Below, one piece after another: positions 673 to 56,295 of a stretch of 64,000 bases of DNA. The stretch is taken from positions 8,934-72,933 of the forward strand of contig PCUV01000104.1 in NCBI GenBank assembly GCA_002786915.1. The letters are read 5' to 3'. The DNA is from Comamonadaceae bacterium CG12_big_fil_rev_8_21_14_0_65_59_15. Lineage in GTDB: Bacteria; Pseudomonadota; Gammaproteobacteria; Burkholderiales; Burkholderiaceae_C. The position numbers and the translations under genes were made by a program. Within the stretch, counting starts at the first letter, position 1. Each line of letters opens with the position of its first letter. The notes below the pieces were generated by a model. That model made no database searches. It was given only the letters and a program-made list of their open reading frames with translations, and was not told the origin of the DNA.

Positions 673-2154
673 ATGCACTACCGTTCTACCCCGGCCCAGC
701 TCGTCAACACCCCCCTCAATTGGAACAACCGTTTTCACCAGTTGGGTGCGGGCTTTTACACCCCGCTGATGCCACAGCCGGTGCCCTCCCCCTACTGGGT
801 GGCTCACAGCCAGCCAGCCGCACAACTGCTGGGGCTGAACGACGACTGGGTGAAAAGCAACGCGCTGCTGCAAGCTTTCAGCGGCAACCAGATTTTGGCG
901 GGGTGCCAACCGCTGGCCAGCGTGTACAGCGGCCACCAGTTTGGCCAATGGGCCGGGCAATTGGGCGACGGCCGCGCCCTGTTGCTGGGCGAGGCCAACG
1001 GGCTTGAAGTGCAATTAAAGGGCTCTGGCCTGACGCCCTATTCACGCATGGGCGACGGGCGCGCCGTGCTGCGCAGCAGCATCCGGGAGTTTTTGTGCAG
1101 CGAAGCCATGCAAGCGCTGGGCATCCCCACCACACGCGCGCTGTGCGTCACGGGTTCCGACTTGCCGGTGCGCCGCGAAACCATGGAAACCGCTGCCGTG
1201 GTGACGCGCGTGGCGCCAAGTTTTATCCGCTTTGGTCACTTTGAACACTTTGCCGCACGCGGTCAGACCGACGCACTGCGCACCTTGGCCGACTATGTCA
1301 TCGAGCGCTATTACCCGGCCTGCCTTCACACCGAAGCACCCGGCGGCAACGCCTATGCCGCTTTGTTGCAACAAGTGGTCGAGCGCACGGCGCTGATGCT
1401 GGCGCACTGGCAGGCAGTGGGCTTTTGCCACGGGGTGATGAACACCGACAACATGAACATTTTGGGCCTGACACTCGACTACGGGCCGTTTGCCTTGATG
1501 GATGCATTCAACCCGGGGCACATCTGCAACCATACCGACCACGCCGGACGCTATGCGTTTGACGCGCAACCCGACATCGCGCACTGGAACCTGTACGCGC
1601 TGGCGCAGGCCCTGCTGCCGCTGGTTGAAAGCCAGGAGTTGGCATTGCAGGCGCTGGATACTTTCAAGCCCTTGTTTGCGAAGCACTACCACCGCCTGAT
1701 GTGTGCCAAGCTGGGGCTGCGTGAAGACTCGAGCGCAGACGCAGGCACATTGATTGAGGACCTGCTGGTGCTGCTGGCGCACGACCGCGTGGACTACCCC
1801 ATCTTCTGGCGCCGCTTGAGTCATGCACGCATGCAGAGCCACTACGAACCGGTGCGCGACCTGTTCATCGACCGGCTCGCCTGGGACGCCTGGCTGCTAC
1901 GCTATCAAGAGCTGATAGCACTTTACCAACAAGGGCCAGAGGCCGATTTGATGCTTAAAACCAACCCCAAGTACGTGCTGCGCAACTACCTGTGTGAAGA
2001 AGCCATTGAGGCCGCACGGCACAAGGATTTTTCGGCCGTGCAGCGCCTGTTGCAGGTCGTTACGCACCCGTTTGACGAGCAGCCGCAGGCGCAGGCGATG
2101 GCGGGTTTTCCGCCCGAATGGGCCAGCCGCATCGAGATCAGTTGCAGTTCATGA
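673..2154 (+). CDS. selO: Protein adenylyltransferase SelO (YdiU family)
   Basis: [47 protein letters not shown] motifs; C-terminal SCSS. Confidence 0.97.
1895..1960 (+). repeat. ~60-bp fixed-spacing dispersed motif, copy inside selO
   Basis: TGCTAC-N7-AGAGCT-N17-AAGGGCCAGAGGCCGATTT. Confidence 0.7.
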
Positions 2155-2187
2155 CCTTTTAAAAAACCTTTTCAAGGACTTCTTGCC

Positions 2188-2598
2188 ATGACTTTCCCGA
2201 TCCACAAACCCGATGACCAATGGCTGACCGAGTTGCAAGCCAACCCCAACGCCGAACCCGTGGTGTACCAGGTCACACGCCACAAGGCCACCGAGCGCCC
2301 TTTTAGCGGCAAGTACGAACGCCATTGGGCAGATGGCAGCTACCACTGCATCTGCTGCGGCAACAAGCTGTTTGACTCGGGCACCAAGTTCGACGCGCAC
2401 TGTGGCTGGCCAAGTTTTTCGCAAGCGTTGCCCGGTGCCATCACAGAGATCACCGACCGCAGCCACGGCATGGTCCGGGTGGAAACCGTGTGCAGCCAGT
2501 GCGGCGCGCATCTGGGCCATGTGTTTGACGACGGCCCCACCAACACGGGCTTGCGCTACTGCATGAACTCGGCTTCGTTAAACTTCACCCCTGCATGA
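2188..2598 (+). CDS. msrB: Peptide-methionine (R)-S-oxide reductase
   Basis: TERPFSG, two CxxC, CGWPSF, HLGHVF, RYCMNS. Confidence 0.97.
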
Positions 2599-3143
2599 AG
2601 ATCCTGATCGACTTTTTCCCCATCCTGCTGTTTTTCGGTGCGTACAAGTTGTACGACATCTACGCGGGCACCGCCGTGCTGATGGCCGCCACCGTGGTGC
2701 AGATGGCACTGATCTACGGCATCGACCACAAACTAAGCGCCATGCACAAGGCCACGCTGGCGCTGGTGCTGGTGTTTGGTACGCTCACGCTGGTGTTGCA
2801 CGACGAGCGTTTCATCAAATGGAAGCCCACCGTGCTGTACGCGGCCATGGCGTTGGCGCTGGCTGTGGCGGTGTGGGTCTACAAAAAAAACTTCCTGAAG
2901 ATGCTGCTGGGCAGCCAGCTCACCCTGCCAGAGCCGGTGTGGATGCGGCTAAACGCCATCTGGGTCGGCTACTGCGCCTTCATGGCGGCCATCAACGGCT
3001 ACGTGGCGGCCTTTTACAGTACCGAAGCGTGGGGCAACTTCAAGCTGTGGGGGTATGCTTTTCCGCTGATTTTCATCATCGGCCAGGGCTTTTACATTGC
3101 GCGCTACCTCAAGGCCGACGAAGCGCAACCGCCCACGCCATGA
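2595..3143 (+). CDS. yciB: Intracellular septation protein A (YciB/IspZ)
   Basis: [14 protein letters not shown] start, FIKWKPT, W.NFKLWG; overlaps msrB stop. Confidence 0.93.
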
Positions 3144-3430: not shown

Positions 3431-3473
3431 TGCGGCTGACTTATTTTTTTCTTTTTTAACCCAGGAAATTCGC

Positions 3474-4259: not shown

Positions 4260-4352
4260 CTACCGGACGTGACAGGCGGCAGACCAGAGTCAGGCCCTCT
4301 GGTTTGAGTCGATGTCGTTGTCTCACCCGTCAATGCCCGGCTGTCATCCTGG

Positions 4353-4778
4353 ATGAGTACGCACAGCATCAGTGACTCCGTGTTGGTCGCGTGCCTGTGC
4401 GCCCAATGGTGCGGTGTTTGCCGCGACTATCGACAACGCTTTGACGAGGTGCGCGGATTGGTGCAGGCCGAACATCCGCAGGTGCAATTCTTGTGGATCG
4501 ACATCGAGGACGAAGCCGATCTGTTGGGCCCGGTGGACGTAGAAGACTTTCCCACAATACTGCTGGCGCGTGGGTCGCAACCGCATTTTTTTGGCCCGCT
4601 TACGCCGCAGGTATCGACCCTGGTGCGCATGATCGACACGCAAGCGCTGGACGCCAGCGCCAAGGCGCTCACCAGCCCCGAGCTGGTGGCGCTGGTGCCG
4701 CGCATCCGCGCAGCTTATCCGGCCAGTGCGTTGCCGGCGGCGTCAAACAGCCCTTCAAACAGCACCGAGCTCAGGTAG
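4353..4778 (+). CDS. Thioredoxin family protein
   Basis: [25 protein letters not shown]; 3' end overlaps convergent cysK by 64 bp. Confidence 0.85.
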
Positions 4779-7552: not shown

Positions 7553-7557
7553 GACTC

Positions 7558-7627: not shown

Positions 7628-9667
7628 ATGTCCCCCCTGCCCCACCAACTCGAACTGTTAGCCCCCGCGCGCGACGCAGCCATTGGCGTGGAAGCCGTCA
7701 ACCACGGGGCCGACGCGGTGTACATTGGCGGGCCGGGCTTTGGGGCCCGCTCCAGCGCTGACAATTCTGTAGCAGACATCGCCCGCTTGGTAAGCCACGC
7801 ACATCGTTTCAACAGCCGCATTTTGGTCACGCTCAACACCATTCTGCGCGACGACGAGCTCGAGCCAGCGCGCAAGCTGGCCTGGCAGTTGTATGACGCG
7901 GGCGCAGACGCGCTGATCATCCAGGACATGGGCCTGCTGGAGCTGGATTTGCCACCGATTCAGCTCCACGCCAGCACGCAATGCGACATCCGCACGCCCG
8001 AGAAAGCGCGTTTTTTGCAAGACGTGGGGCTGAACCAGATCGTGCTGGCGCGTGAGCTCACCTTGGCGCAGATTGCCGCCATCCGCGCCGCCACCGACCC
8101 CGGCCGCTGTACGCTTGAGTTTTTTGTGCACGGTGCGCTGTGCGTGGCTTACAGCGGCCAGTGTTTCATCTCTGAGGCCCACACCGGGCGCAGCGCCAAC
8201 CGGGGTGAATGCAGCCAGGCTTGCCGCCTGCCCTACCAGGTGGTCGATGACAAGGGCCGCTTTGCGGCACATGACAAACACGTTTTGAGCATGAAAGACA
8301 ACAACCAGAGCGCCAACATTACCGCGCTGGTCGATGCCGGCGTGCGCAGCTTCAAGATCGAAGGCCGCTACAAAGACATGGCCTACGTCAAAAACATCAC
8401 CGCACATTACCGCACGCTGCTTGACGCGCTGATCGAAGAACGCCAGCAGTCAGACCAACCCCTGGCGCGCGCCAGCAGTGGCCGTACCACCTTTACCTTC
8501 ACCCCCGACCCCAACCAGAACTTCAACCGCGCGTTCACCGACTACTTTGTCAACGGCCGTCAGGACGATATTGGCGCGTTTGACAGCCCCAAAAATCCGG
8601 GCCAACCCATTGGCTACGTGCTGCAGACCGGCCCCAACTGGGTTGAGCTGGAACTGGCCAACCGCACAACCGAGCTGCACAACGGCGACGGTCTGTGCTA
8701 CTACGACCTGCAAAAAGAGCTGGTCGGCCTGGCCATCAACCGCGCCGAGCTGATCAGCGCCAAAAAAGCCCGCTGGCGCGTGTTCCCCAAAGACGCGCTG
8801 GCCACTTTGAAGGATTTGCGCAAGGGGGTAGAGGTCAACCGCAATCGCGATGTGGCGTGGTTGCGCCAGCTCGACAAAAAGTCCAGTGACCGGCGCATCA
8901 GCGTCTGGGCACAGGTGCGTGTGTTGCCAGAAACCATCGAGTTGACCCTGACCGACGAAGACGGCCACAGCGCCACGGTGCAGCAGGCTTTTGCATCGGC
9001 CAACCGCCAACACAGTGACGATGCTGATGCCGTGCAGGCCCAGGTCAGCGCTCAGATCAGCCGCTTGGGTACAACTGATTTCATAGCGACTCACACAGGT
9101 ATTGACTGGGCTACAGGCCAATTTGGCCTATGTGTTTTGCCCAGCTCGCTGCTCAACGCGCTGCGCCGCGAGGCAGTGGATGCGCTGACCGCTGCACGCG
9201 CCAAAGCCTTCACCCCCCTGCCCCGCGCCGCGCCCGTGGAGCCGCCTGCACCCTACCCCGAGGACACGCTGAGCTACCTGGCCAACGTCTATAACCACAA
9301 GGCGCGTGACTTTTATGCGCGCCACGGCGTGAAAGTGATCGACGCAGCCTTTGAGAACCACCAGGAAACCGGCGAAGTCAGCCTGATGATCACGAAACAC
9401 TGCGTGCGCTATTCGCTCAGCCTGTGCCCCAAGCAGGCCAAGGGGGTGATTGGCGTGCAGGGCCAGGTGCGCGCCGAACCGCTGCAATTGGTCAACGGCA
9501 AAGACACCTTCACCCTGCGTTTTGACTGCAAGCCGTGCGAGATGCACGTCATGGGCCAATTGAAGCCAACTGCTGCCAAGCAGGCGCACGCCCTGCAATT
9601 GGCCAACGCGCACGGCGCACCGCTGACCTTTTACAAAACCCGCCCGCAGAGCAAGCTCAGAACCTAA
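7628..9667 (+). CDS. rlhA: U32 family protein, RlhA-like 23S rRNA C2501 hydroxylation protein
   Basis: LELLAPA, GADAVYIG, LHASTQCD, EFFVHGALCVAYSGQC, RSANRGECSQACR, SFKIEGR; long C-terminal extension. Confidence 0.85.
   Translation: MSPLPHQLELLAPARDAAIGVEAVNHGADAVYIGGPGFGARSSADNSVADIARLVSHAHRFNSRILVTLNTILRDDELEPARKLAWQLYDAGADALIIQDMGLLELDLPPIQLHASTQCDIRTPEKARFLQDVGLNQIVLARELTLAQIAAIRAATDPGRCTLEFFVHGALCVAYSGQCFISEAHTGRSANRGECSQACRLPYQVVDDKGRFAAHDKHVLSMKDNNQSANITALVDAGVRSFKIEGRYKDMAYVKNITAHYRTLLDALIEERQQSDQPLARASSGRTTFTFTPDPNQNFNRAFTDYFVNGRQDDIGAFDSPKNPGQPIGYVLQTGPNWVELELANRTTELHNGDGLCYYDLQKELVGLAINRAELISAKKARWRVFPKDALATLKDLRKGVEVNRNRDVAWLRQLDKKSSDRRISVWAQVRVLPETIELTLTDEDGHSATVQQAFASANRQHSDDADAVQAQVSAQISRLGTTDFIATHTGIDWATGQFGLCVLPSSLLNALRREAVDALTAARAKAFTPLPRAAPVEPPAPYPEDTLSYLANVYNHKARDFYARHGVKVIDAAFENHQETGEVSLMITKHCVRYSLSLCPKQAKGVIGVQGQVRAEPLQLVNGKDTFTLRFDCKPCEMHVMGQLKPTAAKQAHALQLANAHGAPLTFYKTRPQSKLRT
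9072..9132 (+). repeat. ~60-bp fixed-spacing motif, copy inside rlhA
   Basis: ATAGCG-N17-CTGGGCTACAGGCCAATTT. Confidence 0.7.
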
Positions 9668-15003: not shown

Positions 15004-16178
15004 TCGAGCACCGCCGCGTAGACCAGGTTGCGAAACAGCATGCGGTAGTACTCGCGCTGGTTGGGTGCTTGCAGCATCAAAATGGCAAACAGGTCCAGTG
15101 CGGGGTCAACAAAAAACGTGGTGCCGGCCAGCCCGCCCCAAAAATACGTACCCACCGACCCCGGCACCGGCGCACCGCCCAACTGTTTGCGTACCGCAAA
15201 GCCCAGGCCAAAGCCGTGCCCCGGAGGCAGCAGTGCCCGCGTGCCCGCGCTGGCCACGGGAATGTCGCCCAAGTGGTCGCAGGTCATGAAGTCCACCATG
15301 CTCGGCCCCAGCAGACGCACGCCGTCCAACTCGCCCCGGTTCAGCATGAACTGCAAAAAGCGCGCGTAGTCCTGCGCGGTGGAAATCAGCCCGCCGCCGC
15401 CCGAGGCGAACGCCGCGTCGCTGCGCACGTCGATCACCTTCATCTGGATGCCGCCGTCGGGGTCTCGGGCAAAGGGCTCGGCCACGTGGTCGTGAAACTG
15501 CGCCGGCACGGTGAACCCGGTATGGGGCATACCCAGCGGCTCAAAGATATGTTCACGCAAAAAGTCTTGCAGACTCTGCCCCGACACGACCTCGACCACG
15601 CGCCCCAACACGTCGGTGGCGCGGCTGTATTCAAACGCGCTGCCGGGCTGGAACATCAAGGGCATGGCAGCCAGTTGCTGGGTGAACTCGGCCAGCGTGC
15701 GCTGGCGTGAGCCAATGCGCAGCTGCGTGTACTGGCGCTGCACCGGGCTGGCGCCCAGAAATTCATACGTCATGCCCGCCGTGTGGCGCATCAGGTCATG
15801 CACCGTGGCATCAACGTGCACCGGCTCCAAACCGTCGTTACCGGCCACCTGCTGCCCGGCAAATTCCGGCAGGTGCCGGCTGACCGCGTCGCTGAGCAGC
15901 AAACGCCCCTGCTCCACCAGCATCATCGCCGCCACCGAGACGATCGGCTTGGTCATGGAATAGATGCGAAAGCGCGCCTGCAGGTGCATCGCCTCACCGG
16001 TGGCCGGGTTGAGCTGGCCCACGCTGTTCAGCAGCGCAGTCTTGCCGTGGCGCGCTACCACCGCAACCGCGCCGGGCAAACGACGCTTGTCCACCTCCTG
16101 TTGCAGCACGTCCATCAGACGCTGCAGACGGGGCGTGTTCAAGCCGATTTTTTCAGGGGAAACGGATGCCAAAGTCAT
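15000..16178 (-). CDS. Serine hydrolase (beta-lactamase family)
   Basis: SMTK (SxxK), LMRHTAG, FEYS..TDVLG, GGGLISTAQDY, WGG.AGT. Confidence 0.92.
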   Translation of the reverse strand: MTLASVSPEKIGLNTPRLQRLMDVLQQEVDKRRLPGAVAVVARHGKTALLNSVGQLNPATGEAMHLQARFRIYSMTKPIVSVAAMMLVEQGRLLLSDAVSRHLPEFAGQQVAGNDGLEPVHVDATVHDLMRHTAGMTYEFLGASPVQRQYTQLRIGSRQRTLAEFTQQLAAMPLMFQPGSAFEYSRATDVLGRVVEVVSGQSLQDFLREHIFEPLGMPHTGFTVPAQFHDHVAEPFARDPDGGIQMKVIDVRSDAAFASGGGGLISTAQDYARFLQFMLNRGELDGVRLLGPSMVDFMTCDHLGDIPVASAGTRALLPPGHGFGLGFAVRKQLGGAPVPGSVGTYFWGGLAGTTFFVDPALDLFAILMLQAPNQREYYRMLFRNLVYAAVLD

Positions 16179-16238
16179 ATCATTTGTATAGCTGTCTGCG
16201 CTTATTTTATAAGCTCTGGAGGCCAAAAATACCACTAA
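16177..16238 (+). repeat. ~60-bp fixed-spacing motif, intergenic copy
   Basis: ATAGCT-N17-AAGCTCTGGAGGCCAAAAAT. Confidence 0.8.
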
Positions 16239-25921: not shown

Positions 25922-26520
25922 GCACGTCCAACCCCTACCCGCCCATCAAGATCGGCATCGTCTCGGTGAGCGACCGCGCCAGCGCCGGCATCTACGAAGA
26001 CAAAGGCCTACCCGCGCTGCAAGCGTGGCTGACACGTGCGCTCAAAAACCCGTTGCAGTTTGAACCGCGCCTGATTCCCGACGAGCAGGCCACCATTGAA
26101 GCCACGCTAATCGAGCTGGTGGATGCGGCGCACTGCGCGCTGGTGCTCACCACCGGCGGCACCGGCCCGGCCCTGCGCGACGTGACGCCTGAGGCCACGC
26201 TGGCGGTGGCGCACAAAGAGATGCCCGGTTTTGGTGAGCAGATGCGCCAGATCGGCCTGCGGTTTGTGCCCACCGCCATCCTGTCGCGCCAGGTGGCGGT
26301 GATCCGGGCGCAGAGCCTGATCATCAACCTGCCGGGTCAACCCAAGTCGATTGCCGAAACGCTGGAAGGACTGCGTGACGCCGATGGCAAGTCGGTGGTA
26401 CCCGGCATTTTTGCCGCCGTGCCGTATTGCATTGACTTGATTGGCGGGCCGTATCTGGAAGCCGATGAGGCGGTATGCAAGGCCTTCCGGCCCAAGGCAG
26501 CGGTACGGACTTATACATAA
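25918..26520 (+). CDS. mog: Molybdopterin adenylyltransferase
   Basis: VSDRASAG.YED, TTGGTGPA.RDVTPEAT, PTAILSRQ, NLPGQPKSI. Confidence 0.95.
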   Translation: MSTSNPYPPIKIGIVSVSDRASAGIYEDKGLPALQAWLTRALKNPLQFEPRLIPDEQATIEATLIELVDAAHCALVLTTGGTGPALRDVTPEATLAVAHKEMPGFGEQMRQIGLRFVPTAILSRQVAVIRAQSLIINLPGQPKSIAETLEGLRDADGKSVVPGIFAAVPYCIDLIGGPYLEADEAVCKAFRPKAAVRTYT

Positions 26521-26575
26521 GAAATATGCCTCTAGCCCTTATTGAATAAGGGCAAGCAGCTCTTATAAAGAGAGT
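26515..26575 (-). repeat. ~60-bp fixed-spacing motif at the mog stop
   Basis: Reverse strand AGAGCT-N17-AAGGGCTAGAGGCATATTT. Confidence 0.8.
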
Positions 26576-28392: not shown

Positions 28393-29163
28393 TCATGCGC
28401 CAGGCCCAGTGGCCTTGAGCATCATCTTGGCCACACCGCGCAGAATGTGGATTTCTTCCTGCGTGACCTGGGCACGGTTGAACAGCGCGTTCAGCCGCGG
28501 CATCAGTTTTTTGGGCGCCTGCGGGTCCAGAAAGCGGATATGCACCAGCGCCTGCTCCAGGTGCGCCAGCATCCCGGCCACCTGCGCTGCATCGGCCAGC
28601 ACGGCGTCACCGGTGGCCGCCTGCACCGGGTAGGCCGCCAGCGCGCAGCGCCAGTCGTAGGCAATCACCTGCACCGCGGCACCCAGGTTGAGCGAGCCAA
28701 ACTGCGGGTTGCTGGGAATGCTCAGACACACGTGGCAGCGATAGACGTCTTCGTTGCGCATGCCAAAGCGCTCGGAACCAAACAAAAACGCGATCCCGGA
28801 AATAGCAGAATTTTCGGCCTCCAGCTTTTGCCCGGAATGCAGCAATAGCTCTTTTTTCAGAAGCATTTCAAAGTGCTGGCGTGGTGTCGTGGTGGGTGGA
28901 CCGAAGTCGCGTGGCGTCATGGCCGTGGCGCACAGGTGCGTCATGCCGTGCAGCGCCTCGTCGAGCGTATCGACAATGCGAGCGTTTTTCAGCACGTCGG
29001 TGGCGCCGCTGGCGCGCTGGATGGTTTCTTCGCGGCGCAACACGTTGGGCCAGCGCGGTGCCACCAGCACCAGGTCGTCAAAACCCATGGTTTTCATGGC
29101 CCGCGCCACGGCCCCGACGTTGCCCGCCGAGCTGGTGTTGATCAGGATAAAGCGGGTCTGCAT
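28393..29163 (-). CDS. trmJ: tRNA (cytidine/uridine-2'-O)-methyltransferase TrmJ family
   Basis: [36 protein letters not shown]; internal repeat-encoded segment. Confidence 0.92.
28800..28867 (-). repeat. ~60-bp fixed-spacing motif, copy inside trmJ
   Basis: Reverse strand TGCTTC-N7-AGAGCT-N17-AAAAGCTGGAGGCCGAAAAT; encodes [20 protein letters not shown]. Confidence 0.75.
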
Positions 29164-31983: not shown

Positions 31984-32045
31984 CCATCAACTTTGATAGC
32001 TGTTTGCGCTTATTTCGCAAGGGCTAGAGACTGTTTTAATGCTTA
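31984..32045 (+). repeat. ~60-bp fixed-spacing motif between convergent phaC and proQ
   Basis: ATAGCT-N17-AAGGGCTAGAGACTGTTTT. Confidence 0.8.
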
Positions 32046-32720
32046 TTTCAGGGCTGCCAGCGCGGCCCTGATTTCTTGCACATCGCGGCCCACCATGGCG
32101 GCAAAATCTTCTGGCGTTTTGCCACTGGCCTGATACGCCTGTAGCAGTGCGGCACGGCGAGCGCGCTGTTGATCCACCTGGTTGATGGCTTCATCCAGCA
32201 CCGCAGCCACTGCGGCATCAGGTGTACCCACGCGCGCCAAGTAATCGCCACGTGCCAGACCAGACTTGTCATACGCTTTCGTCAATTGCTGTTGCAGTTT
32301 GGGCAACAGGTCTTCCTGCGTGCGCGCCTGGCGGCGCGTGAACACCTCTACCAGCGACAAAAACACATGCTCTGCGGCGACCGGTTCCACTGGCTGGCCC
32401 TGCAGATCATGGCGCGGCAAACCTGACGCCACCGCTTGCAGGTAGCGCGTGGAACGGGTGTGCACGCCCAGCGCCAGCTTGAGCTCGTCGCGCTTGAAAG
32501 TGTCCGGGTGCGCGGCCATCAGCTCCTGAAAAACCCCGAGCTTGAGCGGCAAAAAATGCTGGCCAAAGAGTTTGGGATACAACTCAAACAGCTTTTCCAG
32601 CACCGGCTGTGCGCTGGCAAAGCGGCCTGCGCCCTTGGGCGCTTTGGCCTGATTGGCTGGATTGGCTGGGGGCGCTTCTTGCGGCGCAAGAACGGTGGAT
32701 GCAGAGACGGTGTCGCTCAT
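32043..32720 (-). CDS. proQ: ProQ/FinO family RNA chaperone
   Basis: PLKLGVFQEL, LKLALGVHTRSTRYL, RHDLQG.P. Confidence 0.88.
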   Translation of the reverse strand: MSDTVSASTVLAPQEAPPANPANQAKAPKGAGRFASAQPVLEKLFELYPKLFGQHFLPLKLGVFQELMAAHPDTFKRDELKLALGVHTRSTRYLQAVASGLPRHDLQGQPVEPVAAEHVFLSLVEVFTRRQARTQEDLLPKLQQQLTKAYDKSGLARGDYLARVGTPDAAVAAVLDEAINQVDQQRARRAALLQAYQASGKTPEDFAAMVGRDVQEIRAALAALK

Positions 32721-32818
32721 GGGTGTGCATTGACTTTTCAAGTAAAGCTGGCAATTGTCGGTCAAAGCGCCACTTCGCTGGCATACTTCGCCGCATGAAG
32801 CAGTTTCAGGCCCAAACC

Positions 32819-35491
32819 ATGAACGCCGCTGCGACGTTGCCTGACGCGCCTGCGCTGGCGCAGCAGGTAGCCGCCGTACAAGCCGCCCCCGGGCACTACG
32901 ATGAGTGGCACGGCCGGGTTGCGCAGGCAACGTCTGGGCAGTCTCAAAATGCTACATTTTCTGAAGCTGCCCAAGAAGATTTGACAAGTGCCTGGGCCGA
33001 TTTTTTTAGTCCACTGCAACATGAATCCAAGGTACAGCTGGCGCAGCGCAGCGCCCAGCTGGCGCGCCAGGTGCGCGACAACGGCATCACCTACAACGTG
33101 TATGCAGACCAGGACGGCCCGCAGCGCCCCTGGTCGCTGGACTTGTTCCCGCTGATTCTGGACAGTGCCGACTGGCAACACATAGAAGCCGGTGTTTTGC
33201 AGCGCGCGCGCTTGCTTGAGCACATCATGGCCGATATCTATGGTGCGCAAACGCTGCTTTCCAAGGGCTTGCTGCCGCCCGCACTGGTACAAGGGCATCC
33301 CGGGTATTTACGCGCCATGTGCGGTGCGCAGCCCGTGGGAGGGCGCTTTTTGCACATTGCCGCGTTCGATCTGGCGCGTGGGCCAGACGGCAACTGGTGG
33401 CTGGTAGGGCAGCGCACGCAGGCACCCTCGGGGTTGGGTTATCTGCTGGAAAACCGGCTCGCTATTTCAGCTCAGTTTGAAGCGGCATTTGAATCCATGA
33501 AAGTGCAGCGCCTGGCCAGCACGTACCGCACACTGATGGACAGCCTGCGCGCGCTCAGCCCGATGGGGCGCGGCGCACACCTGGCGCTACTGACGCCCGG
33601 CCCCTACAACGAAACTTATTTTGAGCACGCCTATCTGGCGCGCTACCTGGGCCTGACGCTGGTGGAAGGCAGTGATTTGCTGGTACGCGATGAGCATCTG
33701 TACCTGAAAACGCTCAAGGGCCTGGTGCCAGTGCACGGTTTGCTCAAACGGGTGGACGACCCGTACATGGATCCGTTGGAGCTGCGCGCGGACTCCACCT
33801 TGGGCGTACCGGGCTTGTTGCAGGCCATCCGCACCGGCCATGTGCTGGTGGCCAACGCGCCCGGCTCGGCTTTTCTGGAGTCGCCCGCCCTGCTGGGGTT
33901 TTTACCCGCCCTGGCGCGCCATTTGTTTGACCAGGAACTGTGCCTGCCAGCGCTGCCCACCTGGTGGTGCGGCGAGCGCAGCGCCATGCTCGAGGCGCTA
34001 ACCAAACTGCCGGAATGTGCCATCAAGCCCACTTACCCTGGCAGCGACAACCACAATACATTTGACGCGGTGCTGGGGGCGCGGCAAGACGCGCACACGC
34101 TGGACGAATGGGCTGGCCGCATGGTGCGCAACCCGCAAGACTACACCGTGCAAACATATATGCCCTACTCGCAACTGCCCGTGTGGCAAGAAGAGCGTGA
34201 CGGCGCGGGGGATGGCACGTTGCAGGCTCGCTCAGTGGTGTTGCGCGTGTTTGCCGTCTCTGACGGTGCGCAAGGATGGCGTGTGTTGCCAGGCGGGCTG
34301 GCACGCGTGGCCAGCGGGCTGGAAGACGTGACGTCGATGCAGCGCGGCGGCAGCAGTGTGGATGTATGGGCCATCACGCAAACCGAGATCGATCGCACCA
34401 CGCTGCTGCACCCGCACCTGACGCCCGAAAGCCTGATGCAACGCAAGCGCATGGTGACCAGTCGCGCCGCAGAAAACCTGTTTTGGCTCGGCCGCTACAC
34501 CGAGCGCACGGAAAACGCCCTGCGCCTGGCACGCCTGACGCTGGGTTGTTTGCACGGGGACATGCACGACACCGCCGAACTGAAAACGTGGCTGGGCCAA
34601 TTGGCTGTACTCAATACGTTGGTGTTGCCAAGCGTACCCACCCCCAACCAGGCACCGCATATCTTTGAGCGCGCCCTGATTGACAGCCTCACCGCCACCA
34701 ACCAGGCCACCAGCGTGGGCTACTGCCTGCGCGCGCTCAAGCTGGCGGCATCCAGCGTGCGTGAGCGCCTGTCGCTGGAACATTGGCGCATCATCACACG
34801 CACCGAAGAATCGCTGTTTGCCCGCTTCGCGCAATACCACCAGCAAGGCGACTGCACGGCCCAGAACGCGCTGCACATCCTCAAGGACATCAGCGACCAC
34901 ATGGCCGCCATCACCGGTGCCCAAACCGACCGCATGACGCGCGACGACGGTTGGCGGCTGCTGAGCATTGGCCGGCACATTGAGCGACTGGCGTTTCTGT
35001 CCACCGCCTTGAACCGGGCCATTGACTGCCAAAGCCTGCAAACTGACGCTGGCTTCGACGCTGCCATCGAGTTGTTTGACAACGCCATCACTTTTCATGC
35101 CCAGTTCCAGCAAAGCCGCGACATGGCCGCGCTGATTGATTTGCTGGTGCTGGACCGCGACAACCCACGCTCCATCTACTGGGTGGCCAAGACGCTGCGT
35201 GGTCGGCTGGCCAAACTGGCGGGGAGTGAACCGAATCAACTCAGCGAACTGTCGCTGCAAGTGCCCAACCCTGACGTGTGGAATCTGGCGCAATTGTGCG
35301 AGCGGGCTTACGATCTGATTGATCCGCTACCCTGCGACGGTGACGCGCCCAGCAAGCAGGCACCCGGCTATTTGCTGCTGCGCTCGCTGTTGCACGACTG
35401 TACCAACGCTGCGTATGCGGTGTCAGAGGCGGTCAGCGCCACTTATTTCACCCACGCTGGCATCACCAACCGGAGCGTGCGGGCATCATGA
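32819..35491 (+). CDS. Circularly permuted type 2 ATP-grasp protein fused to an alpha-E domain
   Basis: AFDLARG, RTQAPSGLGY.LENR, LTPGPYNETYFEHAYLARYLG, PGGLARVA, QRGGSS.DVW, FWLGRYTERTE, GRHIER; start may be 32795. Confidence 0.93.
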   Translation: MNAAATLPDAPALAQQVAAVQAAPGHYDEWHGRVAQATSGQSQNATFSEAAQEDLTSAWADFFSPLQHESKVQLAQRSAQLARQVRDNGITYNVYADQDGPQRPWSLDLFPLILDSADWQHIEAGVLQRARLLEHIMADIYGAQTLLSKGLLPPALVQGHPGYLRAMCGAQPVGGRFLHIAAFDLARGPDGNWWLVGQRTQAPSGLGYLLENRLAISAQFEAAFESMKVQRLASTYRTLMDSLRALSPMGRGAHLALLTPGPYNETYFEHAYLARYLGLTLVEGSDLLVRDEHLYLKTLKGLVPVHGLLKRVDDPYMDPLELRADSTLGVPGLLQAIRTGHVLVANAPGSAFLESPALLGFLPALARHLFDQELCLPALPTWWCGERSAMLEALTKLPECAIKPTYPGSDNHNTFDAVLGARQDAHTLDEWAGRMVRNPQDYTVQTYMPYSQLPVWQEERDGAGDGTLQARSVVLRVFAVSDGAQGWRVLPGGLARVASGLEDVTSMQRGGSSVDVWAITQTEIDRTTLLHPHLTPESLMQRKRMVTSRAAENLFWLGRYTERTENALRLARLTLGCLHGDMHDTAELKTWLGQLAVLNTLVLPSVPTPNQAPHIFERALIDSLTATNQATSVGYCLRALKLAASSVRERLSLEHWRIITRTEESLFARFAQYHQQGDCTAQNALHILKDISDHMAAITGAQTDRMTRDDGWRLLSIGRHIERLAFLSTALNRAIDCQSLQTDAGFDAAIELFDNAITFHAQFQQSRDMAALIDLLVLDRDNPRSIYWVAKTLRGRLAKLAGSEPNQLSELSLQVPNPDVWNLAQLCERAYDLIDPLPCDGDAPSKQAPGYLLLRSLLHDCTNAAYAVSEAVSATYFTHAGITNRSVRAS
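32950..33007 (+). repeat. ~60-bp fixed-spacing motif, degenerate copy inside the ATP-grasp gene
   Basis: TGCTAC-N7-GAAGCT-N17-AAGTGCCTGGGCCGATTT (1 nt shorter than consensus). Confidence 0.55.
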
Positions 35492-36535: not shown

Positions 36536-36606
36536 AACTATGATTTGAAATTGATAGCTTATCAAGCTTATCTGATAGGGGCCAGACGCACTTTTATCCC
36601 GTAAAA
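36536..36606 (+). repeat. ~60-bp fixed-spacing motif at the 3' end of the PfkB kinase gene
   Basis: ATAGCT-N17-AGGGGCCAGACGCACTTTT. Confidence 0.65.
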
Positions 36607-45561: not shown

Positions 45562-47649
45562 GTGAACATTTCCCCGCCAAATCCCCCTCCCCGCCGACCG
45601 ATCCGCGAACTGCCCGACGCGCTGATCAGCCAGATCGCCGCTGGCGAGGTAGTGGAGCGCCCGGCCTCGGTGGTGCGTGAGCTGCTGGACAACGCACTCG
45701 ATGCCGGGGCCACGCAGGTCACCGTGCGGCTGCTGGCCGGTGGTGTGCGCCTGATCAGTGTGGAAGACAACGGCTGCGGCATCTTGCCCGACGAGTTACC
45801 CATCGCCCTCAAACGCCACGCCACGAGCAAGATTGGCAGCCTCTCTGACCTGGAGTCGGTGGCCACCATGGGCTTTCGGGGGGAGGCCCTGGCTGCTATC
45901 AACTCCATTGCTGACTGTGCATTGCTGTCAAGGGCTGAAGGCAAAAATCATGCTTACCTTTTGGAGGGGCAAACGGGCGAATTGAAACCGGTGGCGCGCA
46001 GCACAGGCACCACGGTCGAGGTCAAAGAGCTGTTTTTTGCCACCCCCGCGCGGCGCAAGTTCCTCAAGACCGATGCCACCGAACAGGCACACTGTGTGGA
46101 GGCCGTTCGCCGCCACGCGCTGGCCCGGCCCGACGTAGGCTTTGCCATCTGGGCCGACGGCAAGCTCATTGAGCAATGGCGCCGCTGCGGCGATGCAGGC
46201 AGCCTGCCCGCGCTGGAGCAGCGCCTGGCCGACGTGCTGGGCAGCGACTTTGTCGAGCGCGCGGTGTGGGTTGACTTCAGCAACCAAAGCGCCGCATTGA
46301 CGGGCAGCTTGCAGCCTGCCATCAAGGTCTGGGGCCGCGCTGGCATTCCAGATGCCGCACGCTCCAGAGCTGACCAGCAGTTTTGCTATGTGAACGGCCG
46401 TTTTGTGCGCGACAAGGTCATCACCCACGCCGCCCGCAGCGCCTACGAAGACGTGTTGCACGGCCAGCGCCAGCCGGTGTACGTGCTCTATGTTGAGATC
46501 GACCCCACGCGCGTGGACGTGAACGTGCACCCAACCAAGATCGAGGTGCGGTTCAGGGACAGCCGTGAGGTGCATCAGGCGGTGCGCCATGCGGTCGAAT
46601 CCGCGCTGGCCACACCGCGCGCCGGAACGGCTGCGGCTGTGCCGTTGCTGACGGGATGGCCGCACCCAGCCCCACTGGGCGCAGGCAACCCCAATGCTGC
46701 AAGCGCCCATGGTGACCCGTTTAGCCGGGCAGACGCGAGCGCAGGCAGCGCTACAGCTTCTGATTTTTATAAGCAAAATAAGCCTCTAGCGCCTGTGCAG
46801 TATGCACAAGCAGCTATGCACTTTGAAGCACCTCCGGGCCATCGCGTGAGCGACCTGGGTGCGCTGTGGGGGCCATCCAGCGCACCGCACCCTGCCCGAG
46901 TGGCCGAAGATACCGCACCGCTTACACCCGACGAGTCGGACAAGATGAACCCGGTTTTTCTCCCTCCCCCACAGGGGGAAGGAGCCATCCATCCACAGCA
47001 CCTGGATTCTTCAAACGCTTTCACCACCCCCCCAAACGACTGGCCGCTCGGCCGCGCCCTGGCGCAGCTGATGGGGGTGTACATCCTGGCCGAAAACGCG
47101 CAGGGGTTGGTGATTGTCGATATGCACGCCGCGCACGAACGCATCGTTTATGAACGCCTGAAAGCGCAGTGGGACGCGGTGCAAACCAGCGCCGCGTCCG
47201 CGCAGGCCGCCCTGTCCAGCCAGCCGCTGCTGATTCCCGCCACCTTTGCCGCCACACCGCTGGAAGTGGCCACCGCCGAGGCCAGCGCAGACACCTTGCA
47301 CGCGCTGGGGCTGGACATCACGCCGTTTTCTGACAAAACGCTGGCGGTGCGCGCCGTGCCGACCACGCTGGCACAAGGCGACGCAGTGGAGCTGGCGCGC
47401 AGCGTGCTGGCCGAGCTGGCACAACACGATGCCAGCACGGTGCTGGCGCGCGCCCACAATGAGCTGCTGAGCAGCATGGCCTGCCACGGCGCGGTGCGTG
47501 CCAACCGCCGCCTCACCCTGGAAGAAATGAACGCGCTATTGCGCCAGATGGAAGCCACCGAACGCAGCGACCAGTGCAACCATGGCCGCCCCACCTGGCG
47601 CCAACTCAGCCTGCGTGAGCTGGATGCGCTGTTTCTACGCGGGCGCTGA
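45562..47649 (+). CDS. mutL: DNA mismatch repair endonuclease MutL
   Basis: SQIAAGEVVERPASVVRELLDN, MGFRGEAL, DVNVHPTK.EVRF, DMHAAHER, MACH, CNHGRPTW; GTG start inferred. Confidence 0.97.
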   Translation: MNISPPNPPPRRPIRELPDALISQIAAGEVVERPASVVRELLDNALDAGATQVTVRLLAGGVRLISVEDNGCGILPDELPIALKRHATSKIGSLSDLESVATMGFRGEALAAINSIADCALLSRAEGKNHAYLLEGQTGELKPVARSTGTTVEVKELFFATPARRKFLKTDATEQAHCVEAVRRHALARPDVGFAIWADGKLIEQWRRCGDAGSLPALEQRLADVLGSDFVERAVWVDFSNQSAALTGSLQPAIKVWGRAGIPDAARSRADQQFCYVNGRFVRDKVITHAARSAYEDVLHGQRQPVYVLYVEIDPTRVDVNVHPTKIEVRFRDSREVHQAVRHAVESALATPRAGTAAAVPLLTGWPHPAPLGAGNPNAASAHGDPFSRADASAGSATASDFYKQNKPLAPVQYAQAAMHFEAPPGHRVSDLGALWGPSSAPHPARVAEDTAPLTPDESDKMNPVFLPPPQGEGAIHPQHLDSSNAFTTPPNDWPLGRALAQLMGVYILAENAQGLVIVDMHAAHERIVYERLKAQWDAVQTSAASAQAALSSQPLLIPATFAATPLEVATAEASADTLHALGLDITPFSDKTLAVRAVPTTLAQGDAVELARSVLAELAQHDASTVLARAHNELLSSMACHGAVRANRRLTLEEMNALLRQMEATERSDQCNHGRPTWRQLSLRELDALFLRGR
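45894..45956 (+). repeat. ~60-bp fixed-spacing motif inside the MutL ATPase domain
   Basis: TGCTAT-N7-ATTGCT-N17-AAGGGCTGAAGGCAAAAAT. Confidence 0.7.
46765..46830 (-). repeat. ~60-bp fixed-spacing motif in the MutL linker
   Basis: Reverse strand TGCTTC-N7-ATAGCT-N17-AGGCGCTAGAGGCTTATTTT. Confidence 0.85.
46960..46985. repeat. C/G-rich REP half-element in the MutL linker
   Basis: CTCCCTCCCCCACAGGGGGAAGGAGC resembles the elements at 16290-16409. Confidence 0.7.
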
Positions 47650-52703: not shown

Positions 52704-53644
52704 CGGTGCGCCCTGACCGAAGCCACGATGCCCGCGGTAAACAAGGCTGCTGCCAGCCACTGCGCGGGCAGCGGCCACTGGCCGTCCCAGACAAAGGCAT
52801 AGAACAACGAAAACAGCGTTTCGCTCACGATCAGTTGCCCGCACAAACTCGGGCTCAGGTGGCGGCTGGCGGTGTTCCACAGCACGCTGGCGGCCCATCC
52901 GGCACCCAGTCCAGTTACTACGCAAACCGTAGCTATCAACGCTTTATTATCAAGCGCTAGAAGCTGATTTGGCTCTGAACCCGCAAGCAGCCACAAGAGC
53001 AGCGCACCACATCCGGTGGCCACGCCCAGCCAGTTGGCCCAAGCCAGCGCGCTAACTTTGGGGTGGCGCTTGAGCCAGGCGGCGTTGAGCAAGGCAAACG
53101 CGGTCCAGCTCACCATGGCTCCCAACGCCAACAACACACCCCACCAAAAACTCTGACCGGCCTGTGGCAGCGCTGCGGCTTGGGTCAGCGCCACCTGCAT
53201 CATCAGCACCAATCCGGCTCCCGTCAGCACCAAGCACGGCCAGAGCGCAGACCACTTCAGCCCCGCAGGTTTGCCCAACAGCATGACCCAGATTGGAATC
53301 GTGCCAATGATCAGTGTGGGCACCTCCACGCCACAGGCCAACACCGACAGCGCCAGCAGCAGGTAATAGCCGGTAGCACCCAGCGTGCTGAAAGCCACGG
53401 CGGTCGCCGCCTGGCGCGGCGTGGGCCAGGTGCGGCTGCGGCGCTGCAGCAGCATCACCAGCGTGGCAATCAGACCAAAGCTGACAAAGCGCGCGGCGGT
53501 CACATCCACCGCAGTGAGCCCCACCGTCATGCGCGGCACCACAAACACCATGCCCCACAAGGCACCCGCACCCAGACCTGCGGCAATACCGATCCAGGAC
53601 AAGGGTGCGCGGCCTGCGCCTGCGTCAAACGCCAAAACCGTCAT
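52700..53644 (-). CDS. DMT/EamA family transporter
   Basis: About 10 TM segments; GALWG..FVVP, LWN.AS..L, GQLIVSETLF. Confidence 0.85.
   Translation of the reverse strand: MTVLAFDAGAGRAPLSWIGIAAGLGAGALWGMVFVVPRMTVGLTAVDVTAARFVSFGLIATLVMLLQRRSRTWPTPRQAATAVAFSTLGATGYYLLLALSVLACGVEVPTLIIGTIPIWVMLLGKPAGLKWSALWPCLVLTGAGLVLMMQVALTQAAALPQAGQSFWWGVLLALGAMVSWTAFALLNAAWLKRHPKVSALAWANWLGVATGCGALLLWLLAGSEPNQLLALDNKALIATVCVVTGLGAGWAASVLWNTASRHLSPSLCGQLIVSETLFSLFYAFVWDGQWPLPAQWLAAALFTAGIVASVRAHR
52916..52979 (+). repeat. ~60-bp fixed-spacing motif inside the DMT gene (antisense)
   Basis: TACTAC-N7-GTAGCT-N17-AAGCGCTAGAAGCTGATTT. Confidence 0.8.
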
Positions 53645-54407
53645 CGGCCGAGATCACCGCACCGTTGATGAAATGGCTTTGATCCGAGCACAGCATCACC
53701 ATCAGCGCGTCCAGGTCTTGCGGCTGCCCGACGCGCTTGCGTGGCAGCATTTGCACCAGCTTCTGACCGGCCTCGGTCTGCCAGTGGTTGTGGTTGAGCT
53801 CGGTGTCGATATAACCCGGACAGATGGCGTTGACGTTGATGCCAAAGCGGCCCCACTCCTGCGCCATGGCGCGCGTCATCTGGATCACCGCCGCCTTGCT
53901 CATGCAGTAGATGCCGATCTTGGGCAACACGCGCAAGCCCGCCATCGACGCCACGTTGATGATGCGCCCGCCAGTGAAAGCACCGGGTGCTGACCCTTGC
54001 GCGCGCGCCAGCATGCGTTTGCCGACCTCCTGTGCCACAAAGAATGCACCCTTGACGTTGGTGTCAAAGACAAAGTCGTAGTCGCGCTCGCTCACGTCCT
54101 GAATGCGCTGCGTGGTGCTCACGCCCGAGTTGTTGACCAGAATGTCAATCGAACCGACCTCTGTTTCGGCGTGCGCTACCGCCGCCTTGATGGAAGCCTG
54201 GTCCGTCACATCCAGTTCAATCACGTGCGCGTCGCCGCCCTCAGCGTCGATCTGCGCGCGCAGTTCCTTGAGACGCTCCACGCGTCGGCTGGCCAATACC
54301 ACCGCCGCACCGGCGGCAGACAAAGTGCGTGAAAACTGCGCACCCAAGCCACCCGAGGCCCCGGTGATCAAAGCCACCCGGCCCGACAAATCAATGTTGT
54401 ATGACAT
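53625..54407 (-). CDS. SDR family oxidoreductase (FabG-like)
   Basis: TGASGGLG, LVNNSG, YCMSK, NAICPGYIDT. Confidence 0.93.
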   Translation of the reverse strand: MSYNIDLSGRVALITGASGGLGAQFSRTLSAAGAAVVLASRRVERLKELRAQIDAEGGDAHVIELDVTDQASIKAAVAHAETEVGSIDILVNNSGVSTTQRIQDVSERDYDFVFDTNVKGAFFVAQEVGKRMLARAQGSAPGAFTGGRIINVASMAGLRVLPKIGIYCMSKAAVIQMTRAMAQEWGRFGINVNAICPGYIDTELNHNHWQTEAGQKLVQMLPRKRVGQPQDLDALMVMLCSDQSHFINGAVISADDGFGV

Positions 54408-54603
54408 GAACCCACTCCAAATAAATAGTACGACCGTTCCGTTATGCTTGTGCGCAAAACTAGAATCGGGTTTTATCTCTGACAATCAACGTGCCAACAG
54501 GCACCCTGACCGTGCACCGATCTTAATCAGTTGAAGGAACGTCCCGGCCTGCGCCCAGCGGCTTTTTTCCAGCTCTTCTGTATTTAGCAAAGCGAGAATC
54601 ATC

Positions 54604-56295
54604 ATGACCCCTCAAGACATCCTGACCCAATTCGGCCCGCGTGAATCGATGGAATACGACGTGGTCGTGGTCGGCGCCGGCCCGGCTGGCCTGGCCACGG
54701 CCATCCGCATGAAGCAATTGGCGGCTGAAAAAGGGCAAGACGTATCGGTGGTGGTGCTGGAAAAAGGCTCCGAGCCCGGCGCCCACATCCTGTCAGGTGC
54801 GGTGCTCGACCCGCAGTCGCTCACTGAACTGTTCCCCGACTGGAAAGCGCTCGGCGCCCCGTTGGACCAACCGGTGACCGACGAAGCCATGCTGTTTTTG
54901 TCAGAAAAGACCGGCTACCGCACGCCCAACTTTCTGCTGCCCGCGTGCAGCCAGAACCACGGCAACTACATCATCAGCCTGGGTGCGCTCACGCGCTGGC
55001 TGGCCACCCAAGCCGAAGGGCTGGGCGTGGAAATCTTCCCCGGCTTTGCCGCCGCCGAGGTGCTGTACGACGACACCGGTGCCGTCAAAGGGGTGGCCAC
55101 CGGCAATATGGGCGTCGAGAAAAACGGTGAGCCTGGCGCCAACTTCCAGATCGGCATGGAGCTGCTGGGCAAGTACACCGTGTTTGCCGAAGGCGCACGC
55201 GGCCATCTGGGCAAACAGGTGATTGAAAAATTCAAGCTCGACGACGGCTGCGACCCGCAAAGCTACGGCATCGGCATCAAGGAACTGTGGGAGGTGGACC
55301 CCGCCCGCCACGAACCCGGCCTGGTGGTGCACACCGCCGGCTGGCCGCTGGACAACAGCACTTATGGCGGCTCTTTCATGTACCACATGGCGGGCAACAA
55401 GATTGCCATGGGTTTCATTACCGGGCTGAACTACCAGAACCCGTATTTGAGCCCGTTTGAAGAATTCCAGCGCTGGAAGACGCACCCCAACATCCGCTGG
55501 TACCTGACCAACGATGCCGGGGAAGTCACCGCAAAAAGAATAGCGTATGGCGCCCGTGCCATCGCGGCAGGGGGCCTGTTATCCTTGCCCAAAACAGTGT
55601 TCCCCGGCGGCGCGCTGGTGGGCTGCGATGCGGGGTTCTTGAATGTCAGCCGCATCAAGGGCAGCCACAGCGCCATTAAGAGCGGCATGCTGTGCGCCGA
55701 GGCCGCGTTTGAAGCGCTCACGGCTGGACGGGCGCATGATGAGTTGGGCACTTATCCGGAAAAGTTCGAGCAAAGCTGGCTGTACGCTGAACTGAACAAA
55801 TCTCGCAACTTCAAGAGCTGGTTCAAGTACGGGCTGCGCGTGGCGACCCTGATGAACGGTTTTGAGCAGTTTGGCCTGAAGGCGGCCATGCCCTGGACGG
55901 TGCACCGCGACAAGCCGGATCATGCGTACCTTAAACCAGCCGCAGAGTGCCAACCGATTGAGTACCCCAAGCCCGACGGCAAACTCACCTTTGATCGATT
56001 GAGCAGCGTGTTCATCAGCAGCGCCAACCACGAAGAAAATCAACCGTCGCACCTGACGCTGAAAGACGCCAGCGTGCCGGTCAACATCAATCTGGCCAAA
56101 TACGCCGGTCCCGAGGCGCGCTATTGCCCGGCCGGGGTGTATGAGTTTGTCAAGGACGAGGCGGGTGCCGACAAATTGCAGATCAACGCCGCCAACTGCG
56201 TGCATTGCAAAACCTGCGACATCAAGGACCCGACACAGAACATTGTGTGGGTCACGCCCGAAGGCGGCGGTGGGCCAAATTACGCAGAGATGTAA
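54604..56295 (+). CDS. Electron transfer flavoprotein-ubiquinone oxidoreductase
   Basis: GAGPAGLA, GAHILSGA, IKGSHSA, YCPAGVYE, NCVHCKTCDIKDP. Confidence 0.97.
   Translation: MTPQDILTQFGPRESMEYDVVVVGAGPAGLATAIRMKQLAAEKGQDVSVVVLEKGSEPGAHILSGAVLDPQSLTELFPDWKALGAPLDQPVTDEAMLFLSEKTGYRTPNFLLPACSQNHGNYIISLGALTRWLATQAEGLGVEIFPGFAAAEVLYDDTGAVKGVATGNMGVEKNGEPGANFQIGMELLGKYTVFAEGARGHLGKQVIEKFKLDDGCDPQSYGIGIKELWEVDPARHEPGLVVHTAGWPLDNSTYGGSFMYHMAGNKIAMGFITGLNYQNPYLSPFEEFQRWKTHPNIRWYLTNDAGEVTAKRIAYGARAIAAGGLLSLPKTVFPGGALVGCDAGFLNVSRIKGSHSAIKSGMLCAEAAFEALTAGRAHDELGTYPEKFEQSWLYAELNKSRNFKSWFKYGLRVATLMNGFEQFGLKAAMPWTVHRDKPDHAYLKPAAECQPIEYPKPDGKLTFDRLSSVFISSANHEENQPSHLTLKDASVPVNINLAKYAGPEARYCPAGVYEFVKDEAGADKLQINAANCVHCKTCDIKDPTQNIVWVTPEGGGGPNYAEM
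55531..55594 (+). repeat. ~60-bp fixed-spacing motif, degenerate copy inside ETF-QO
   Basis: ATAGCG-N17-CGCGGCAGGGGGCCTGTTA with locally AT-rich codons. Confidence 0.5.

Follow-up and report, generated by a model that had tools for sequence, protein, structure and literature searches.

Several described families of bacterial repeats resemble the motif examined here, a two-box DNA motif that recurs through a 64-kb stretch (64,000 nucleotides; hereafter, the window) of the genome of Comamonadaceae bacterium CG12_big_fil_rev_8_21_14_0_65_59_15. The uptake signal sequences (USS) of Pasteurellaceae and DNA uptake sequences (DUS) of Neisseriaceae have cores of 9-12 nt, or about 30 nt with flanks. 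Approximately 65% of USS lie in genes, and both signals have been reported to be enriched in genome-maintenance genes. Repetitive extragenic palindromic (REP) sequences, including their composite forms BIME and REPIN, are hairpins of 20-40 nt, often arranged as inverted doublets and associated with a cognate REP-associated tyrosine transposase (RAYT). Rickettsia palindromic elements (RPE) are in-frame insertions that add 30-50 residues to proteins, and HIP1 of cyanobacteria is an 8-bp palindrome of unknown function.

In the window, the motif occurs both between genes and within intact housekeeping genes. Our analysis indicates it is a DNA-level signal that was very probably imposed on the genes by base substitution. 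The reading we favor, with a probability of roughly 0.45, is a protein-recognized double-stranded DNA signal maintained by directional substitution and most similar to USS and DUS.

A two-box motif with fixed spacing

The motif is 55-70 bp long and consists of box A (GCTAYnAAWtnnATAGCTGCTTGCGC), a variable stretch of about 10-12 nt, and box B (GGGCTAGAGGCC) followed by an A/T run. Across 53 genomic and 113 metagenomic copies, the full consensus reads (a)attGCTAYnAAWtnnATAGCTGCTTGCGC on the left, followed by the variable stretch, with (a)aGGGCTAGAGGCC, nAWWWg, and a weak cttaaAA on the right. Conservation stops at the motif edges. We scanned metagenomes with the pattern ATAGCTG-N{5,35}-GGCTAGAGGCC, which permits gaps of 5-35 nt, and found a gap of exactly 19 nt in 115 of 120 matches, the other five being scattered. 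This gap corresponds to the N17 spacing in an earlier note on this DNA, made from the sequence alone, which had described a bipartite motif with conserved spacing and free spacer sequence. The freedom of the spacer was only partly upheld: CTTGCGC directly 3' of box A is conserved, whereas the next ~10 nt vary. The variable part differs from clade to clade, although these clade-specific spacer "dialects" are based on few copies per genome.

Box A contains an imperfect palindrome, the dyad GCTAT...ATAGC. Separately, columns 16 and 88 of the metagenome alignment (located 17 nt ahead of ATAGCTG and 55 nt past its first base) are complementary in 46% of 113 copies, compared to an expected 25%. This pair is isolated, lies just outside the motif edges, and has no adjacent stacked pairs in support.

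Copies in the window and their significance

A 19-mer representing the right-hand box yielded six matches with at most three mismatches, compared to 0.05 expected by chance. To avoid circularity, we seeded a hidden Markov model (HMM) only from the four copies outside genes (16177, 26515 on the minus strand, 31984, and 36536). This intergenic-only HMM recovered the copies at 46765 (minus strand, E=3e-8), 1895 (E=2e-7), 45894 (E=1.5e-3), and 52916 (E=5e-3). A second model, the family HMM, was iterated over the window and related loci (cited below as L and a number) and includes orthologous copies among its members. It detects nine window copies at E <= 1.2e-5, located at 1897, 9078, 16179, 26565 (minus), 31990, 36546, 45896, 46828 (minus), and 52918. 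The copies and one marginal candidate are as follows.

1897..1950 (+): in selO, sense; intergenic-only HMM E=2e-7
9072..9126 (+): in rlhA (U32 peptidase), sense; family HMM E=2.9e-6, missed by the intergenic-only HMM
16177..16231 (+): at or immediately upstream of the 5' end of a minus-strand beta-lactamase-family open reading frame (ORF) and downstream of a Meth_synt_2 gene; seed copy, E=3.8e-7
26520..26574 (-): at the 3' end of a MoCF-biosynthesis-domain gene, on and directly behind its stop codon; E=1.2e-8, 19-mer with one mismatch
28803..28875 (-): in trmJ, sense; decayed, HMM E=5e-3 and 1.0 (intergenic-only)
31985..32039 (+): fills the whole 66-bp spacer between convergent PhaC and ProQ-like genes; E=1.8e-9
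32945..33017 (+): marginal candidate near the 5' end of an ATP-grasp-type gene, not counted as a copy; E=0.09 and 0.2 (intergenic-only)
36543..36597 (+): between convergent transglutaminase-like and PfkB kinase genes, overlapping the last PfkB codons; seed copy, E=1.2e-5
45896..45950 (+): in the MutL ATPase domain, sense, AAINSIADCALLSRAEGKNHAY; intergenic-only HMM E=1.5e-3, family HMM 3e-7
46774..46828 (-): in the MutL variable linker, antisense, read as NKPLAPVQYAQAAMHF; E=3e-8 (intergenic-only), 1e-11 (family)
52918..52972 (+): in a drug/metabolite transporter (DMT/EamA) gene, antisense; E=5e-3 (intergenic-only), 3e-8 (family)

As a control for codon usage, each gene was shuffled 500 times with its protein sequence and codon counts preserved. 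The observed score was never equaled in the 500 shuffles of selO, mutL, the DMT gene, or trmJ; the selO copy scores 26.9 bits against a shuffle maximum of 19.5, and the DMT copy 13.1 bits against 3.9. The earlier note had named codon-shuffled controls as a possible refutation, and the copies in these four genes passed this comparison. The repeat family in the window is real, and nine of the twelve copies originally reported are significant. The trmJ copy can be added as a decayed but true member because the orthologous gene in L218 (409-449, minus strand) carries a good copy at the same codons (GCAGAGCTGCTTACGC...AAAGAGCTAGAGGCCAAAAAAGC, E=1.7e-5). The ATP-grasp candidate was missed by the family HMM and is equaled by 1 of 500 shuffles. 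A twelfth candidate, in the gene for electron transfer flavoprotein-ubiquinone oxidoreductase (55531..55594, plus strand), was rejected: it aligns over 25 nt of the left part only (E=1.2), lacks box B, and scores no better than codon shuffles. The occurrence of copies on both strands was confirmed. Eight copies had been placed in frame inside genes; six of these stand (selO, rlhA, trmJ, mutL twice, and DMT), while four copies are intergenic or at gene ends.

Among the non-coding window copies, three of four are at the 3' ends of genes, two of these between convergent genes. Directly after the copy at 31985-32039 is a strong terminator-like hairpin (32048-32071; 10 pairs, then a T-run), which sits within the last codons of the convergent ProQ-like gene. 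The longest ORF of the ATP-grasp-type gene begins at a GTG and shares ~320 bp (32609-32930) with the divergent ProQ-like ORF. At least one of the two probably starts further in, which bears on whether the candidate at 32950 is coding.

Copies in genes replace existing codons

Comparison to orthologs reveals how the motif came to lie within genes. Over the selO copy, the window protein aligns residue for residue, without gaps, to the solved SelO structures of P. syringae and E. coli and to 120 orthologs; the MutL ATPase-domain copy is likewise gap-free against E. coli MutL and 79 orthologs. The possibility of an RPE-like coding repeat, which the earlier note had entertained, fails on this comparison, as neither copy adds residues. 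Length differences do occur in RlhA (+4 aa) and TrmJ, in which the copy region is ~14 aa longer than in E. coli TrmJ, but these are far below the length of the motif.

The MutL ATPase domain provides the most detailed example. In most Comamonadaceae this stretch reads GCC ATC AAC TCG GTG TCG GAA CTC GCC CTG CTC TCG CGC ACG (INSVSELALLSRT), with GC-rich codons and the residues VSELALLSRT. In the Rhodoferax clade it reads GCT ATT AAT TCC ATA GCT GAT TGC GCA ATA TTA TCG AGG GCT AGC GGC C (INSIADCAILSRASG), a near-perfect motif that includes the rare codons ATA, TTA, and AGG. The difference amounts to ~18 substitutions in 49 bp plus the replacements V>I, S>A, E>D, L>C, and T>A, all of them toward the motif, while the flanks stay conserved. 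The native Arg is kept but recoded from CGC to AGG. Five orthologs (L007, L008, L039, L058, and L025) fit the motif better than the window copy itself. Judged from these alignments, the motif-bearing state of the MutL ATPase domain is the derived one. In an uncultured Rhodoferax (mutL at L014:2618-2842), the motif-derived residues INSIADCAI are kept in GC-rich codons and no copy is found on the 9.5-kb contig; these residues look like an amino-acid fossil left after loss of the motif system.

The selO and rlhA sites show the same pattern, with box B kept almost perfectly in R. antarcticus and R. fermentans. The window selO reads CAA GGG CCA GAG GCC GAT TTG ATG CTT AAA, and the same codons in R. 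antarcticus are GGG CTA GAG GCT GAT TTG ATG CTT AAA. In rlhA the window reads TGG GCT ACA GGC CAA TTT, and box B is perfect (TGG GCT AGA GGC CAA/CGA TTT) in the orthologs from these two Rhodoferax species. The outgroup L091 has GC-rich codons and no motif at either site, and its RlhA is 4 aa shorter there.

Box B is read as GGG CTA GAG in selO, as GCT AGA GGC in rlhA and mutL, and as CCT CTA GCC, antisense, in the mutL linker. Because frames and strands differ between genes, the similarity resides in the DNA, and a shared peptide motif is excluded. Codon composition is consistent with this: GC3 (GC content at third codon positions) is 0.36-0.60 in motif codons versus 0.73-0.83 in the remainder of the same genes, and AT-ending codons are kept between species in 58% of cases inside the motif compared to 42% outside. 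Plain synonymous-site identity does not distinguish the motif from the rest of the gene, because strong codon bias already gives ~60% identity.

In selO, rlhA, mutL (twice), trmJ, DMT, miaA, and an amidase linker, orthologs from different species and genera retain copies at the same sites. The MutL linker copy is found at the equivalent position in loci from Rhodoferax, Polaromonas, Simplicispira, Diaphorobacter, and Acidovorax, and the DMT copy has an orthologous copy at L039:13911. Relatives carry further in-gene copies in miaA, the amidase linker, mutS, purL, and other genes. Copies in genome-maintenance genes include mutS (L220:4749-4801), miaA (L007:17423, L008:20444, and L020:16447), and mutL (45896 and 46828); this gene set is anecdotal, the sample being too small for an enrichment test.

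Tests for RNA structure and mobility

A motif with a dyad and a spacer could act through its fold rather than its sequence, as RNA or as single-stranded DNA; a small RNA, terminator, stabilizer, or replication or transfer hairpin would be examples. Four features speak for a folded element. A spacer hairpin can form in several window copies (GCCCTTAT-TCA-ATAAGGGC at 26515), and box A is able to pair with itself. In one orthologous pair, GCTATC...AGGAGC has become GCTCCT...AGGAGC, a change that looks compensatory, and copies tend toward gene 3' ends. Across the family, however, the paired fraction equals the prediction from column composition, both in 53 copies and in an independent set of 113 from metagenomes; neither the spacer hairpins nor the box A dyad shows base-pair covariation, and RNAalifold found no consensus structure on either strand. 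Rfam returned nothing at gathering thresholds, with no copy matched even at E<=5, and ARAGORN gave no match. A promoter reading of the reverse strand (TTGtg-N17-TAtTAA) was also discarded, as a consensus scan found no promoter or terminator within the copies. A single metatranscriptome held 7% of the words. Relative to the host gene, both sense and antisense copies occur. We consider an element of this kind very improbable.

Mobility offers a second explanation. A REP/REPIN- or MITE-like (miniature inverted-repeat transposable element) selfish repeat could insert between genes by means of a RAYT or other transposase encoded elsewhere, with in-gene copies arising through short-patch gene conversion. 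In favor of this idea, perfect copies lie mostly outside ORFs, and the placement of non-coding window copies at gene 3' ends and between convergent genes is the classic REP position. In addition, the imperfect palindrome of box A stands beside a TAG, somewhat like the GTAG head of REPs; spacers look genome-specific, as in families undergoing amplification; and one copy has been captured in an integron cassette (see below). The direct tests gave no sign of insertion. Direct and inverted flank matches of 113 copies, which would reveal target-site duplications (TSD) or terminal inverted repeats (TIR), equal those of mismatched controls. The 64-kb window holds ordinary housekeeping genes, with no transposase found, and no RAYT was present there or among the called genes of related loci. 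The copies are singletons, no inverted doublets were seen, and no stem covaries. The SelO and MutL-ATPase copies came without an indel, and a native residue such as the Arg recoded from CGC to AGG would survive a pasted or converted patch only by luck. Moreover, an inert insertion would decay, whereas these copies are retained at orthologous sites across genera, and close strains carry identical copy sets with no presence/absence polymorphism (in a small sample). The relatives compared lack synteny around the PhaC site and the remaining intergenic sites, and no empty sites were identified. On balance, a selfish repeat appears quite unlikely. The absence of a transposase or TSD agrees with the earlier note, whose preference for a DNA-level recognition signal over an ordinary MITE is supported. 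For the in-gene copies, the results exclude chance, a shared peptide, an RNA fold, and insertional mobility.

Distribution among Comamonadaceae

The source lineage is Rhodoferax-like and is also seen in groundwater metagenomes. We found the motif in loci from Rhodoferax, Polaromonas, Simplicispira, Diaphorobacter, Acidovorax, and some Comamonas. No copies were found in sampled loci of Curvibacter, Hydrogenophaga, Limnohabitans, and Ramlibacter; Variovorax had none or weak ones, and the relative L091 had none in 21.5 kb. Across the 1.45 Mb of loci sampled, no copies were found outside Comamonadaceae, the loci of Burkholderiaceae, Oxalobacteraceae, and Methylophilaceae included. Where present, the motif occurs about once per 5-7 kb, with nine copies in the 64-kb window and three to five per 22 kb in related loci. 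A strand polarity suggested by the window (7:2) was dropped, as it fell to a nonsignificant 17:10 over unique sites in all loci once orthologous duplicates were removed. GenBank phages contained no copies except for one integron-like record.

On a plasmid of Diaphorobacter sp. HDW4A (L095-L097, 1-150 kb) there are only three copies in 150 kb. This plasmid is a mosaic of Tn3-family transposons, insertion sequences, mer operons, and a class 1 integron, and its three copies lie around cobN and a neighboring region that looks native to Comamonadaceae.

These patterns bear on a third explanation, in which the motif is the binding site of an abundant chromosome-organizing or nucleoid-associated protein and each site is under ordinary selection for folding, segregation, or replication, with no role for uptake. 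Such a protein could, for example, bind the box A dyad as a dimer and also touch box B, at a distance of four helical turns. The rigid distance between the boxes, the AT-rich tracts ~43 bp apart, the dyad without base-pair covariation (as expected of a duplex read by protein), the conservation of orthologous sites, and the few copies on a plasmid would all suit this role. Gaps between successive copies in the window (1897-52918) are 7.2, 7.1, 10.4, 5.4, 4.6, 9.4, 0.9, and 6.1 kb, more even than for nine random sites (coefficient of variation 0.46, P=0.015), although this test was post hoc and related loci look less regular. On the other side, known organizing sites (parS, matS, KOPS, Noc, and SlmA) are only 8-20 bp, and KOPS, like recombination signals such as Chi, is strongly strand polarized, in contrast to the ratio observed here. 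We compared the IHF, FNR, sigma-54, and parS consensus sequences to the motif by eye, and none fits. An organizing role must also explain why hundreds of sites, some at the cost of residue changes in MutL, would each matter, and it does not readily account for clade-specific spacer variants common to unrelated sites in one genome. We regard this explanation as unlikely.

Two observations concern neighboring regions. A small strain-variable spot lies between the rotamase and PALP genes (window 4353-4778, L003:12710-13135, and L004:6480-6722): among contigs whose SelO is identical, it contains a thioredoxin-like ORF in one, a short unknown ORF in another, and neither of these in the third. The ABC-transporter/selO block of R. 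antarcticus is directly preceded by a type III-A CRISPR-Cas module (Cas10/Csm1, Csm2, and RAMP genes; L089:1-4407), which neither R. fermentans nor the window's organism has at this position.

A copy in the integron cassette orfF

We found no published description of the motif in literature searches by taxon, concept, and literal motif strings, as the earlier note had supposed. Its remark that it knew of no named description needs qualification, because one database trace was found, and only one. A BLAST search of plasmids matched >1,700 enterobacterial records at the integron cassette orfF of dfrA12-orfF-aadA2 arrays. In C. freundii plasmid pCTX-M3 (L093:2994-3040), this cassette carries a perfect motif copy ~90 bp upstream of attC. 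The cassette's product is catalogued as a protein family, DUF1010 (PF06231). Translating the motif on its reverse strand gives positions 1-26 of the family's model (...ASSPxxASASSY...); the remaining positions are cassette-specific sequence, and the end of the model translates the attC site. Chromosomal motif copies score 15-17 bits against DUF1010, below its cut-off of 25. Since the model begins with the motif and ends with attC, we suggest the DUF1010 "protein" is spurious and the cassette may have come from a Comamonadaceae genome.

An uptake-like signal as the preferred reading

How could a DNA motif rewrite housekeeping genes? In the reading we prefer, that of a duplex signal similar to USS and DUS, a sequence-specific protein would read both boxes on double-stranded DNA. 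Competent cells would favor DNA from their own kind that bears the motif, importing it and integrating it into the chromosome by recombination; substitutions that create the motif would spread because the DNA carrying them is preferentially acquired. Such a directional process, if strong enough to recode genes, would prevent copies from decaying and would be relaxed in lineages that lost the system. In open DNA, mostly at gene 3' ends, copies are near-perfect, and within genes base substitution has overwritten codons as far as the protein tolerates. We adopted this reading because molecular drive is the only well-understood process with exactly these footprints. Uptake itself, argued by analogy, is a doubtful function for the motif. 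Equally tentative is the broader proposal of a previously undescribed genome-wide "self" DNA signal in the Rhodoferax/Polaromonas/Acidovorax group, a long bipartite site with a dedicated protein to read it, propagated by biased uptake, recombination, or repair and rewriting codons and residues of housekeeping genes such as mutL, mutS, selO, and miaA.

Several observations weigh against an uptake signal. At 55-70 bp and with two boxes, the motif greatly exceeds all known uptake signals in length, and at ~1 per 7 kb it is several times sparser than USS and DUS at ~1 per kb; it also forms no inverted pairs. Of the perfect-box metagenome copies, 81 of 95 lie in no open frame, a profile closer to REP than to USS. 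As the best copies are mostly non-coding, the in-gene copies are the compromised ones. The concerted clade-specific spacer variants come from few copies per genome, and statements on density, ori/ter strand bias, and depletion from genomic islands are extrapolated from ~1.5 Mb of loci. Finally, we found no report of sequence-specific uptake or natural competence in the genera that bear the motif.

Were the self-signal proposal correct, Comamonadaceae would be the first group beyond Pasteurellaceae and Neisseriaceae with a USS/DUS-like system, and the architecture of that system would be new. If the motif serves uptake or self-recognition, sequence-biased DNA exchange would reach into a large family that is environmentally dominant in freshwater, groundwater, and wastewater, and it would follow that such signals can be long and bipartite. 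A chromosome-organizing site would instead point to an abundant, hitherto unrecognized DNA-binding protein. Either way, the motif is a clear case of DNA-level constraint on protein, visible in codon choice and in residue changes within a conserved MutL domain. It also serves as a sequence tag indicating a Comamonadaceae origin of the clinically widespread cassette orfF and as a warning that annotated "proteins" of the DUF1010 type may partly be translations of repeats.

Comparison with known systems

The motif is not a MITE, a classical REP, or an RPE. MITEs are bounded by TIR and TSD, which the copies lack, and the structured RNA families of Rfam include no covariance model that matches them. 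Like RPE, the motif lies within protein-coding genes that stay intact, but it differs from those residue-adding, in-frame insertions in that nothing is added to SelO or the MutL ATPase domain and its frames and orientations vary. Its likeness to REP, BIME, and REPIN sequences is closer: hundreds of short, species-specific, partly palindromic repeats without coding capacity are expected per genome, favoring gene 3' ends and convergent intergenic spacers. REPs, however, are extragenic, whereas about half of the window copies (six) sit in intact genes without an indel, as singletons with neither a maintained stem nor a RAYT in view. The integron cassette orfF is related in a different manner, as it carries a perfect copy of the family under the name of a protein family. 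HIP1 is likewise a DNA-level motif that is over-represented in coding sequence, spread by substitution, and of unknown function; HIP1 is short, palindromic, and found about once per kb, while the motif described here is long, asymmetric, and bipartite.

The closest resemblance is to USS and DUS. The motif departs from these in its size, with two boxes at a fixed 19-nt gap in place of a 9-12 nt core, and in its lower density, the mostly intergenic location of its perfect copies, and the lack of inverted pairs. In common with USS and DUS, it is a family-specific, lineage-restricted motif scattered over the chromosome on both strands; it is written by substitution, without indels, into unbroken genes in several frames, with a preference for tolerant protein regions; and it has copies in mismatch-repair genes, if anecdotally. 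Also shared are enrichment in non-coding DNA at gene 3' ends, retention at orthologous sites, and lineage-specific variants.

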